Source of the DNA: Eledone cirrhosa
Lineage: Eukaryota
Length of the DNA: 64,000 nt
Direction of reading: 5' to 3'
Assembly (NCBI GenBank): GCA_964016885.1
Contig: OZ024740.1
Coordinates: forward strand, 87,234,001 to 87,298,000
Shown here: positions 12,773 through 27,884 of the stretch, piece after piece
Numbering within the stretch: position 1 is the first letter of the stretch
How the letters are laid out: each line of letters opens with the position of its first letter
Translations under genes and position numbers: made by a program
The notes under the pieces: model-generated
Database searches by the model: none
The model's input: the letters and a program-made list of their open reading frames with translations, nothing else
Told to the model about the DNA's origin: nothing

Positions 12773-12950
12773 TTTAGGTTTGAAGGTTCACCACTGGATA
12801 GAGCTGGTCATTCCGTATGGTCAATCTTGATGTAATATGAAGAGTACTCAACGTAAAGCAGCTCAACAGTCTTCGTTTGCGAGTACGGAGTTAAATATTA
12901 TAATAAAATAACATGAGGCTGGACTTGATTAAATCCTTGAAAAGTTTATT

Positions 12951-13008
12951 ATACTATGATCATTTCAATGACCGGGTTCTGTATGAATCCGGTGATATCA
13001 TCAGGTAT
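12951..13008 (-). ncRNA. Minimal type I hammerhead ribozyme (intact core)
   Basis: atac-CTGATGA-tatcaccggattcatacagaacccggtcatt-GAAA-tgatca-TA-gtat: stem I atac/gtat, stem II accgg/ccggt, palindromic stem III. Confidence 0.8.
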
Positions 13009-14693
13009 TCGAAATATAATAAATGAATGTAACAGATAAAATCCATGGGGCTGAAAATCATAGACCCGAGGACGACCGACCATCTAGCATCTTCCAATTT
13101 AGCTGGTCGCCCTCAAGTGCTGGCTATTTGGTCTACTTAAGGCTATCTGGTGATGGGGTGAAAGCTTATAATGTGCTACTAACCTCCTGGTCAAAGAGAA
13201 AAACAAAGACAGAAAGAAAGAAGAAAAGTCAGCGTTAATGACATGCTACAATCAGGCTAGGAATTGCCGCAAAAAATGTTATTCTAAAGAACCTATATCT
13301 TAATAGAGGTATATATAGTGGGTATATATACTTCCGTTTTACTCCACCACCACCACCACCCTAGCAATGACGGCATTTTATTTATTTTTTTATGTATTTT
13401 TTCATTTATTTATTTATACCTTTTTACTTTATTAATGTGTTTTTATTTTCGTATTCTGCTTTTATTTATCTATGTATTCTTTGTTTTTTGCCTACTGTTC
13501 CATTAATTTAGGTTTTTCCTCGCTTTACTCTCATTAAGTACATATCATTGTACTCATTAGCACACGACACTAGATATAGTATATTTGCGCTTTTCATCGG
13601 GTTTTATAATTGATTACACGCTATCATCCGACTGGTGTGGTGGTTTTCCTGGCTGTGCGCCCGGCGCCCTGGTGTATAAGTCTCCCTTGAGTACTTGGAA
13701 AAATAAATTTCCCCTTCTTTCGGTAAATGAAATTACTCGGAGCGGCCTGTTTTGCCCCAGGGCCCTCCGCGCTGCCGTTTTTGACCGCCATATAATACCT
13801 TTAAATTCTAGGCCTAATCATAACTATTAGCTGTATCATGCCTCCCTCTACTGGCACTTAAACAAATCCCCCTCCTGTGTTAATTAATAGTACTCGTTTG
13901 GTATAACGATGGCCTAACGACAATGGTTGACTTCCCAATAGCACACCCGAAGCCTAGAACAGTTACATTCCTTGAATGCTCGGAGAAATTGATTTCCATA
14001 TCTCTCGCTAGACGGTTTCACTCAAAATGGCTGACACGTGGTTAGGATGGGCTGGCCGGAGTCTGCAGTCGTCGCGTGCTGTTTGACTGCTAAACAAGGA
14101 TTTAATCTTTACTCTATATCCCACCCTGAAAACTTATCGAGGATCTCCATAATACACTTGAAATTTTTTCATAAAAGACTCTCTCTCTGTAAATTCCTTA
14201 ACTAAATCTCGCAACGCAAACCATAAATTTTTTTAAACTGTTTAATTTTTAATTTTCAATTTTTTTTTAATTTTACAATTTTAATCTTTAATTTAATTTT
14301 TTGTAAATTCATCCCATAAATCTAAACAAAAATTTAACGTCTCTATTTTCTGTTCACACATTATACCATGCAGACGCCCACTATATATACCTCTGTTAAG
14401 ATATAGGTTCTTTAGAATAACATTTTTTGCGGCAATTCCTAGCCTGATTGCAGCATGACATTAACGCTGACTTTTCTTCTTTCTTTCTGTCTTTTTTTTT
14501 TTTCTCTTTGACCGTGAGGTTAGTAACACATTATAAGCTTTCGCCCCCTCACCAGATAGCCTTAAGTAGACCGAATATCCAGCACTTGAGGGCGACCGGT
14601 TAAAGTGGAAGATGCTAGATGGTCGGTCGTCCTCGGGTCTATGATTTTCAGCCCTATGGATTTTATCTGTTACATTCATTTATTATATTTTGA

Positions 14694-14751
14694 ATACCTG
14701 ATGATATCACCGGATTCATACGGAACCCGGTCATTGAAATGATCATAGCAT
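14694..14751 (+). ncRNA. Minimal type I hammerhead ribozyme (intact core, one stem I mismatch)
   Basis: CTGATGA 14698-14704, GAAA 14736-14739, tgatca 14740-14745, predicted cleavage after 14747; AATAAA at 14752. Confidence 0.75.
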
Positions 14752-14808
14752 AATAAACCTTTCAAGGATTTACACAAGTCCAGCCTCCTGTTATTTTATT
14801 ATAATATT

Positions 14809-18542: not shown

Positions 18543-18872
18543 ACAGTCCACGCTGTAAATGTGGCCGTGTAGGCAACACGGTAAAAACCTCCCAGCCCCA
18601 CACTGTAAATGTGGTTGGTGTTAGGAAGGGCATCCAGCTGTAGAAAACCCGCCAGACAGTCCACGCTGTAATGTGGCCGTGTAGGCAACACGGTAAAAAC
18701 CTCCCAGCCCCACACTGTAAATGTGGTTGGTGTTAGGAAGGGCATCCAACTGTAGAAAACCCGCCAGACAGTCCTATGCGAGCAAGACAACCACTCTTGC
18801 CTCAAGTGGGAAAACCCCCGTCCAAACCCATGCAAGCGTGGAACACGGACGCTAAACCTGATGATGATGATG
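18543..18872 (+). mobile_element. RTE 3'UTR fragment identical to 1565-1894
   Basis: Same 113-bp tandem duplication with the same diagnostic variants; (GAT)n tail. Confidence 0.92.
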
Positions 18873-25604: not shown

Positions 25605-25885
25605 ATCATCATCATCATCATTTTACGTCCGTTCTTCCACGCTAGCATGGCTTAGACGGGTTGTCCTGTTGTGGGCAGTGTCCGGTCGGCTGATCTTGTC
25701 TTGTTCATACAGGAACTGATTCTGGCTTGATTTCTACAGCTGGATGCCCTTCCTAACACCAACCTCATTTACAGTGAGCGGTGGGTGCTTTTTTGTCGTG
25801 GCACCTCCATGACCACTTTGCAGTGGAATGATAGGGACCCCAGTACTATCATCTGATTTCTACAGCTGAGTAAACTGGAGCAATG
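25605..25885 (-). mobile_element. tRNA-SINE with RTE tail, 3' part
   Basis: 25621-25826 closely matches the RTE 3'UTR at 53829-54080; continues into the SINE core cagctgagtaaactggagcaatgt. Confidence 0.85.
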
Positions 25886-26009
25886 TTTTGAAACAGTGAG
25901 CAGGTTTGAAATTAGAAAATAGAATAGCTTTCACCGTATTTTTGACTAAAGGAATTTTAGCCTGATAATAGGGTTTAGAACCCTCAGATAAATGGAAAAC
26001 GATGAGTAT

Positions 26010-26080
26010 TGACGTACATGGGAGTCGAACCCACATCTTTGGTTATCGCGACCACTGTGCTACCATTACACCAACACATC
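26010..26080 (-). tRNA. tRNA-like cloverleaf (71 nt, anticodon position CGA), probably not a decoding tRNA
   Basis: Acceptor gatgtgt/gtacgtc, D arm gtgt-aatggta-gcac, anticodon arm tggt-cgcgata-acca, T arm gtggg-ttcgact-cccat; G at position 33; T-run 10 nt downstream. Confidence 0.6.
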
Positions 26081-26200
26081 ACACATCTCTCTCCATTCAA
26101 ATTAGAAGCTACATTCTTAGCGAGTTTAAATGGCAAGTAAGTATGTTTTGAAACAGTGGAATGATAGGGACCCCAGTACTATCATCTGATTTATATATAG

Positions 26201-26378
26201 TGAAGGTGCATGGCTTAGTGGTTAGAGCATTAGGCTTGCAATCGAAAGGTTGTGAGTTCAATTCTCGGACCAGGTGATGTGTTGTTTCCTTGCACAAGAA
26301 ACTTTATTTCACATTGCTCCAGTTTACTCAGCTGTAGAAATCAGATGATAGTACTGGGGTCCATATCATTCCATTGCA
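26201..26378 (+). mobile_element. tRNA-SINE head and core (same family as 17406-17740)
   Basis: gaaggtgcatggcttagtggttagagcattaggcttgcaatcgaaaggttgtgagttcaattctc with A and B boxes; its 3' end is the reverse complement of 25819-25885. Confidence 0.85.
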
Positions 26379-26512
26379 ATTCCTTTAGTCAAAAATACGG
26401 TGAAAGCTATATATTTTCTAATTTCAAACCTGCTCACTGTTTCAAAACATACTTACTTGCCATTTAAACTCATTAAGAATGTAGCTTCTAATTTGAATGG
26501 AGAAAGATGGGT

Positions 26513-26583
26513 GATGTGTTGGTGTAATGGTAGCACAGTGGTCGTGATAACCAAAGATGTGGGTTCGACTCCCATGTACGTCA
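26513..26583 (+). tRNA. tRNA-like cloverleaf (71 nt, anticodon position TGA), probably not a decoding tRNA
   Basis: Same fold as 26010-26080; A box TGGTGTAATGG, B box GGTTCGACTCC, TTTTT about 10 nt downstream. Confidence 0.6.
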
Positions 26584-27884
26584 ATACTCATCTTTTTCCA
26601 TTTATCTGAGGGTTCTAAACCCCATTATAAAGCTAAAATTCCTTTAGTCAAACATACGGGGAAAGCTATATATATATATATACACATATACACACAGAGA
26701 TACCAAATTATACGGATTCACATACAATTTCAACACTTGCATGCACACATTCTCAGACAGACACACACATACACCCATATACTTGATAACATAAAGAGTC
26801 ATTTTATGGGTTGGGGACCAATTATTCCTCTATTCTTTTAAGAAAATGGACACACACGCACATTCATATTTATTAAATTTCCAAGCACAAATTACTCTAG
26901 TGTATTGATACTATATTTATATGATTGTACACTCTTTCATCATTCATATCAGCATTAAAATAAAAAAGTAATTCAATCCGCTTAATTAGTAACACTGCCT
27001 ATATTCAATCATAGTTGAATTATAATTACAACTTATCTATCTCCAAATCAATGGTGAACTATAACTTTACTTTGACAGTTTTAGCTCAACATCTGTTGCT
27101 TCTGTTCCTAATCTGTAGGATCTATTCTCCTTCCAACTTCTTATAATACCTTTGTCTCCTACTAGTAACAGTCTCTAGCATCATCCTGCAATATCAAATG
27201 GTATGTACAACATTCCTCCCCCAAGTCCACAACCTCAGTAAGGGAATTCAATTTCGTTTTTTTTTTTTTTTTTTTTTTAACTGTTTAGCTCGGGAGGGAA
27301 TGGCAGCAATCATGACCTTTTTCAGAGCATCCATGTATCCTCAAACCAGAGCTGGGCTGAATGCTTGCAACAGGGTGGACTCTGCTAAAGGCATTTACAA
27401 CCAAATGGTAGGATTAAACTGGAAGATTGATTAAACTGGAGGATTGATTAACGCTAATATAAAACACATTATCAAAAATACTTTAAAATTTTGTCTCCAT
27501 TTCTGAGATAAGGAATTAAAATTATTATGCACAGCTTATTTTGGTTGTTATAGCAAGAAAATTAGAGTTGTTGGACTATCTAGATTTCTTCAGGTGCCTG
27601 TTGAATTCTGTAATGTTCTCAGAATTTCAAATAGAACTCTTTATTAATCATTGAGTAGATTATTCTAACTCCACTCTATTGTCCATAACTATGAATGAAC
27701 AAATGATATCACAAGAAACTAATAACTAATACAAGGATATTCTCTAAACATGGACAATGGCATGAGCACAATCTACTCCAATGGTTTGATTAAAAGGTTT
27801 GATCTGAATAAATCAGCATGTAATAAAAATACTTTCTGATAAGATTCAGACGCTACCATACATTTCTTCCATCATAACAGTAGG

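Follow-up and report, generated by a model that had tools for sequence, protein, structure and literature searches.

A non-coding, ribozyme-free repeat with a tRNA-type promoter as a probable passenger of Penelope-like elements in Eledone cirrhosa

How does a short repeat with a tRNA-like core come to lie twice in one place, on opposite strands and opened at different points of the same circular sequence? The question is raised by a locus in the genome of Eledone cirrhosa, within a stretch of 64,000 nucleotides (contig OZ024740.1, positions 87,234,001 to 87,298,000) that was analysed as a whole and is called the window here. A preliminary description of the window had reported the two copies, and its observations on them were borne out. 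The minus copy (25883-26158) has a 16-nt direct repeat at its bounds with a spacing of 260, the plus copy (26378-26669) has a 33-nt repeat (37 nt including the TA run) with a spacing of 259, and a dimer made of the plus monomer gives 96% identity with the minus copy over 276 nt. The plus copy continues into (TA)n, as described.

With the unit numbered from the first cloverleaf base (+1, tRNA G1; period 260), sequence comparison places the left arm (25883-26158, minus strand) from +183 round to +198 and the right arm (26378-26669, plus strand) from +125 round to +157, which is the short 3' end. Repeat inspection puts the (TA)n target tract of the right-arm 3' end at 26670-26681 (plus), while the left-arm 3' end meets a SINE via 3-nt microhomology, not (TA)n. 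The left arm alone carries a "tail" 3' of the tRNA (+158 to +198; 25883-25923, minus), and the inverted repeat ends at 25924. The SINE is a tRNA-headed host element in two halves: the 5' half lies inverted between the arms (26200-26379, plus; Rfam tRNA 30.2 bits) and the 3' half, recognised by comparison with an intact copy, at 25605-25886 (minus). Once joined, the halves are 93% identical to the intact copy over 384 nt, and a direct and inverted repeat search found a 42-nt piece from the SINE middle duplicated at the arm junction (26154-26195, minus). The copies had been taken for independent permuted monomers; most likely they are the inverted arms of one insertion, which also broke the host SINE, and on the simplest reading a single complex event took place where the TA tract adjoins the SINE. 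The arms share one uncommon variant and disagree at one subfamily site, so that two templates or two events are conceivable. No piece crossing the junctions of this locus was found in contigs and RAD reads. Elsewhere in the window, a SINE occurs in two nearly identical copies 17 kb apart (1556-1903 and 18543-18872), each with 112 bp duplicated internally.

The preliminary description had allowed for the possibility that the unit has no other copies, or only copies with fixed ends, but there are thousands of copies and their ends vary. In the 3.0-Gb genome, a DNA search with the unit gave 1,794 candidate places, of which 40 were scored; a D-arm 23-mer has 444 + 713 exact matches, and a trailer 22-mer that is not in subfamily B has 984 + 989 = 1,973. 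At least five subfamilies can be distinguished, in sets of which C and D each contain one mis-binned copy. A1 and A0 have a period of 260 bp and diverge from their own consensus by 2.4% and 5.5%; the period is 290 bp in B, about 271 bp in C and about 286 bp in D, with divergences of 2.4%, 4.6% and 6.4%. The core of D is 82-84% identical to that of A, and a search with D gave 1,456 candidates in the genome. Pieces of the unit with a tandem junction also occur in contigs from two studies, in runs that bear the names of three other organisms and may represent relatives or mixed samples; the contigs of one run, with no library type on record, served solely as a pointer to divergent subfamilies.

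The anatomy of insertions was determined on C1, in 135 loci from two pattern searches, taken in the order of their positions. Duplicate loci of one place, array loci and, in some analyses, segments below 88-92% identity were excluded before counting. The near-identical segmental copy L105 was left out of the 3'-end, allele and anatomy counts and kept in the 5'-end count; the near-identical insertion pairs with matching flanks (L104/L105, L009/L010 and L213/L214) are probably segmental duplications. Inverted head-to-head arrangements, with the 3' ends outward, made up 87 of the 135 loci, 47 were single-strand, one was complex and none was tail-to-tail. A run longer than one monomer was present in 62 loci, the longest runs reaching 5.4 monomers. 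(TA)3 lay within 25 nt of 188 of 221 outer 3' ends, compared to 399 of 5,000 random window positions (8%).

These 3' ends contradict the free choice of opening point that the permuted copies had suggested, since they are confined to two zones, at about +155 to +172 and +203 to +211 in A and about +158 to +176 and +232 to +243 in B. Among the TA-flanked ends of A, 65 of 69 fall within 150-215, a region with just 6 of the 21 TA-like trinucleotides, and the commonest long end (+207) has no homology to the TA tract. The 87 inverted pairs comprise 64 that combine a long and a short end, 12 with two short ends, 11 with an end elsewhere and none with two long ends; the expectation for long with short is 43% (excess, p = 5e-9). 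This pairing, long with short and never two long, suggests that each target strand starts its own cDNA and that the two start sites differ. The median tail is 42 nt in A (n = 18) and 64 nt in B (n = 8). Monomers of subfamily D (L237-L265) have an internal TA-rich tract at the long 3' zone, possibly a captured target.

Insertions of Penelope-like elements (PLEs) are described as 5'-truncated and partly tandem, with an inverted 5' copy, a tail of 30-40 bp at one end and a bias towards (TA)n (PMC8557442), and the PLE protein cuts and extends both strands, the cDNA starting inside the RNA at two sites whose interval corresponds to the tail (PMC11167929). Tested for the structural marks of a non-autonomous PLE, the unit shows all four: 5' truncation or partial tandems, inverted 5' copies, a one-end tail and a microsatellite target. 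The genome itself contains an autonomous PLE family that has an RT plus, at the C terminus, a GIY-YIG domain (10,596 GIY-YIG candidates, 150 scored), and its PLEs carry a cysteine linker that we take to be Neptune-type. The tail signature also shows in an autonomous PLE of this genome, an inverted one whose two ends lie on (TA)n at 531 and 591 nt beyond the ORF.

The window also holds a hammerhead-bearing PLE-type element (12774-14808) with inverted ends on (TA)n. Its hammerhead cores lie near 13004 (minus) and 14698 (plus), with 3' ends 64 and 189 nt beyond the core; there are 4,505 candidate places for it in the genome, of which 40 were scored, and one copy is present in locus L172, some 1.2 kb beyond the ORF of an autonomous PLE. 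The suggestion that the unit is mobilised by the machinery of this element holds in that both bear the same kind of marks, but no sequence link was detected, either to the hammerhead family or to any sampled PLE. A BLAST search of the A dimer against 50 PLE loci, all of the C-terminal-endonuclease type, gave no match, and the best agreements with PLE 3'-UTRs (16/18 and 15/16 nt) were AT-rich, came after many comparisons and were not convincing. Hammerhead cores were absent from either strand of four consensus dimers in a search that detected its positive control, and no ribozyme family matched the unit at E values up to 10. A match to MIR7533 was far below the cut-off, reflects the inverted arms and was rejected.

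Because the PLE-type layout recurs in thousands of copies but the hammerhead is absent, the unit is likely a PLE passenger copied from its own RNA. The full reading, in which it is a non-coding, ribozyme-free passenger of the PLE machinery with a tRNA-type promoter and is copied from a linear or end-joined template, is probably correct. The mobilisation step by PLE enzymes, taken alone, is very likely, and the nature of the template is the least secure part.

The tRNA-like part was described as an internal rather than 5'-terminal cloverleaf. This applies to the window copies, each with 71 nt that are recognised by ARAGORN and by the Rfam tRNA model (left arm, 26010-26080, minus, 41.2 bits; right arm, 26513-26583, plus, 41.8 bits), but in other copies the cloverleaf is often 5'-terminal. 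The Pol III A box (26520-26530), B box (26562-26572) and following T5 (26593-26597) are all present in the plus copy; the minus copy has T4 in place of T5. Both boxes are intact in subfamilies A, B and C, while D lacks A58 of the B box, and subfamily B has lost two outer acceptor pairs. Since T5 (T6 in D) closely follows the tRNA, much Pol III transcription should end early, which, like the missing A58 of D, speaks against the passenger reading.

ARAGORN does read Ser(tga) and Ser(cga) in the window, as the preliminary description had it, but these anticodons and G33 are merely alleles of the youngest subfamily. Among 69 pattern-sampled copies the anticodon loop is CTGGATA in 41 and CGCGATA in 14, and the anticodon of the oldest subfamily, D, is GGC. 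We regard G33 and the Ser anticodon as incidental recent alleles without meaning. Across the subfamily consensuses the loop always has C at its first position, G at its fourth and A at its last, and the remaining loop bases vary. The drifting anticodon, the loss of A58 in D and the loss of acceptor pairs in B all count against a tRNA role. Nor does the unit look like a conventional tRNA gene, the anticodons CGA, GGA and GGC occurring on a single body without a long variable arm. The cloverleaf is identical to host tRNA-Gln at 42 of 72 positions, with a resemblance in the D arm that does not extend to the rest, and in the partial set of host tRNA genes compared there was no match to it that would make the unit part of a plain tandem tRNA cluster. 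ARAGORN nevertheless labels 91 of 141 intact unit copies as tRNAs, and such copies swell tRNA gene counts.

The genome has other tRNA-like sequences. Conventional tRNA-Gln and tRNA-Thr genes with pseudogenes form tandem clusters at C1:168.21-168.28 Mb (L188-L198) and C1:243.65-243.68 Mb (L362, L364). Ten of the 16 top Rfam tRNA matches belong to a different dispersed repeat, about 1.7 kb long and with copies 91-95% identical (L363, L365-L373; e.g. L366:1175-2860), which has an internal tRNA-like gene with the loop anticodon GGC, as in subfamily D, an internal inverted repeat of about 170 bp and no ORF of 130 codons.

The preliminary description overlooked a long stem around the cloverleaf. The 19 nt before it (-19 to -1; 26494-26512 in the right arm, plus; 26081-26099 in the left, minus) are predicted to pair with +74 to +92 after it (26586-26604, plus; 25989-26007, minus), so that the T run would be buried in the stem. 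The predicted stem is 19-22 bp long, both strands being 2 nt longer in D. Over 34 copies pairing holds in 90.8% of cells, against 39-50% in slid structures. Two-sided covariation was no better than in shuffles (448 of 500 at least as high), and the support for the stems consists of one-sided changes and one paired indel, the differences among subfamilies being chiefly swaps between G-U and Watson-Crick pairs. Folding z-scores of the core were -3.6 in A, -2.8 in C, -4.6 in D and a weak -1.1 in B. A and D share 61 of 71 positions in the cloverleaf and 106 of 179 in the spacer. On this comparison, the better preservation of the cloverleaf and the lengthening of both stem strands in D count as support for selection on the fold.

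The 5' ends of the copies bear on the template. Stops numbered 24 per 1,187 nt at risk at -10 to +9 and 0 per 1,020 at -11 to -30 (p = 7e-5 against -11 to -40; 113/114 segments anchored at +59), and a smaller, overlapping set pointed in the same direction (rate ratio 2.1, p = 0.02). This pile-up implies that the 5' end of the RNA lies close to the tRNA head, as expected of Pol III initiation. Of the 113 segments, 24 stop at the head and 51 extend into the previous monomer, and together with the two 3' zones this is not the pattern of a single-monomer SINE. A second hotspot in the T loop (19/113, p = 9e-4) is weaker evidence because it adjoins the +59 anchor, and is consistent with a folded template. 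We rejected m1A58 as the cause of the T-loop stop, D having no A58 and still showing the hotspot (5/13).

The junction between monomers is seamless, with no excess of indels. Within a locus, alleles match in 145 of 148 comparisons between tandem monomers and in 274 of 282 between inverted ones (419/430), against 24,126 of 46,223 (52%) across loci; one of the 11 disagreements in 430 is that between the window arms. An apparent case of position-specific alleles at +157 to +159 was an artefact of gap placement and disappeared with motif-based calls. Since runs cross the junction and monomers of one locus share alleles, some step must repeat one monomer, the alternatives being read-through of homogeneous tandems, a jump across RNA ends that are held together, or a true circle. 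A linear multimer template alone does not account for new alleles reaching every monomer. The allele agreement, the seamless runs and the PLE-type architecture together support the earlier proposal of a mobile Pol III-type module spread through a multimeric or circular template.

The strongest rival retains mobilisation by PLEs and assumes rolling-circle reverse transcription of a monomer RNA that tRNA-processing enzymes of the host have closed covalently into a circle; we consider it possible but unlikely. These enzymes would cut either at one tRNA head after the next, in the manner of RNase P, or, as the splicing endonuclease does, in successive anticodon loops, and ligation would follow. 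Such a circle would fit the seamless junctions, the allele agreement within loci and the presence of subfamily indels in every monomer. It also gains from the constant loop bases and from a modelled read-through A transcript in which the trailer pairs with the leader of the next monomer. A splicing endonuclease is reported to have cut a tandem-tRNA transcript in vitro (PMC3978253), and retrozymes are described as employing such circles (PMC7229834). A circle has no 5' end, however, and the stops cluster around the head and disappear upstream of it, scattered over about 20 nt instead of lying at +1. Tandem monomers have a private variant in common in 2 of 128 cases and inverted arms in 12 of 210 (p = 0.09), with no tandem excess, and subfamily B lacks a full acceptor stem. 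If true, which we hold only as a tentative possibility, the unit would be a ribozyme-free retrozyme, a tRNA mimic with its own Pol III promoter in which tRNA enzymes replace the hammerhead, cutting multimers to monomers and closing these, and the PLE RT goes round the circles more than once. PLEs would then have their own equivalent of SINEs, and circular RNAs in animals a third way of arising.

It is improbable that the unit is the pLTR of an unsampled autonomous PLE, for example a Naiad, that bears a tRNA-like fold, the copies being its truncated ends. Naiads are described as lacking hammerheads, favouring (TA)n and occurring in cephalopods (PMC8557442), and our PLE sampling covered the C-terminal-endonuclease type only. 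Upstream, however, the unit is preceded by further unit sequence, by an inverted arm, by (TA)n or by unique DNA. PLE protein matches, present in 3 of the unit loci searched, stand apart from the unit, and the runs of several monomers are likewise against it.

Very improbable is an origin as satellite DNA, with monomers dispersed at the DNA level by extrachromosomal circles or recombination, or from array transcripts. Two arrays do exist. The one on C1 has 25 monomers and an inverted 5' segment, and each of its ends lies on (TA)n. The other, of B type, extends over about 276 kb with about 950 monomers (C28:19440624-19716546; L349-L358), and 8 of 8 sampled inner 10-kb blocks consist entirely of the unit. 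It begins after (TA)n at the A box and is cut at +81 at its 3' end, so that both arrays start after (TA)n, as insertions do. Many variants of intermediate frequency in the C28 array suggest a higher-order structure. Three alleles are near fixation in that array (59, 54 and 59 of 60 monomers) and absent from dispersed B copies (0/27, 0/28 and 0/28), which argues that the array is a product and not a source; the dispersed copies, moreover, are strictly polar. The 276-kb array is thereby a documented case of a satellite derived from a single insertion. An ordinary tRNA-headed SINE, mobilised by a LINE with twin-priming inversions, is hardly credible: the A and B boxes and the surplus of starts at the tRNA head would fit, but so many loci exceed one monomer, both arms end in defined zones on (TA)n, there is no poly(A) or fixed simple tail, and the pairing of long with short ends disfavours twin priming, in which inner breakpoints are random and one 3' end is primed.

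For the preferred reading, a PLE passenger with a linear or end-joined template, we propose the following course. The unit RNA would likely be a Pol III transcript from its own A and B boxes, starting near -5. The PLE enzyme would nick both strands of a TA tract, two cDNAs would begin inside the RNA, one at each 3' zone, and these would be united head to head through microhomology. To copy more than one monomer, the enzyme would cross monomers on a read-through transcript or jump between RNA ends kept together by the 19-22-bp leader-trailer stem. Some insertions would afterwards amplify locally into satellites.

Among known systems, metazoan non-LTR retrozymes are described as short (150-450 bp) non-coding monomers that form multimers and arrays and are proposed to be PLE passengers (PMC7229834; bioRxiv 10.64898/2026.07.22.740005), and the unit's periods of 260, 271, 286 and 290, tandem and dispersed, lie within that range. 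Retrozymes differ in having, according to that description, a type I hammerhead in each monomer and a relation to pLTRs (PMC7229834); the unit has no hammerhead and no detected pLTR homology, and its tRNA fold lies inside a long stem. Judged by sequence, the unit appears to behave like a non-LTR retrozyme but fails on the hammerhead that defines them. Non-autonomous PLEs such as MRC1 of Chlamydomonas, as characterised in PMC8557442, share the pLTR-like partial tandems, head-to-tail multimers, inverted 5' copies, one-end tail, microsatellite targets and lack of a hammerhead. They are said there generally to resemble their autonomous family at the 3' end, for which the 50 sampled PLE loci gave no convincing candidate in the case of the unit, and the passages describing them mention no tRNA-derived or Pol III module, the sole occurrence of "tRNA" concerning selenocysteine (PMC8557442).

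Among such repeats with a Pol III module, the one that comes closest is, from its description, the SINE-like hammerhead repeat of Schistosoma, with a Pol III promoter in a tandem monomer and multimeric transcripts (PMC6765202). There the hammerhead frees the monomers, whereas the unit has none and its cloverleaf is predicted still to fold; PLE-type tail and inversion marks have been quantified for the unit, unlike for those repeats as presented in PMC6765202. tRNA-derived SINEs, including octopus families, are similar, by description only, in their A and B boxes and in many copies starting at the tRNA head (PMC4758252), and differ by a single monomer, a fixed 3' tail and a LINE partner, in contrast to the circular continuity and two internal 3' zones of the unit. 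In circularly permuted tRNA genes, host tRNA enzymes are reported to circularise a tRNA-like precursor (PMC3978253), but those are host genes for working tRNAs and the unit is a mobile repeat with a drifting anticodon. In searches of the open-access literature, we found no tRNA-based, ribozyme-free PLE passenger. Set beside these systems, the unit suggests that neither a hammerhead nor pLTR homology is indispensable for hitch-hiking on PLEs. Its roughly 2,000 short copies are a natural record of how PLEs work, which is poorly understood, and it offers a 260-nt template for testing PLE enzymes.
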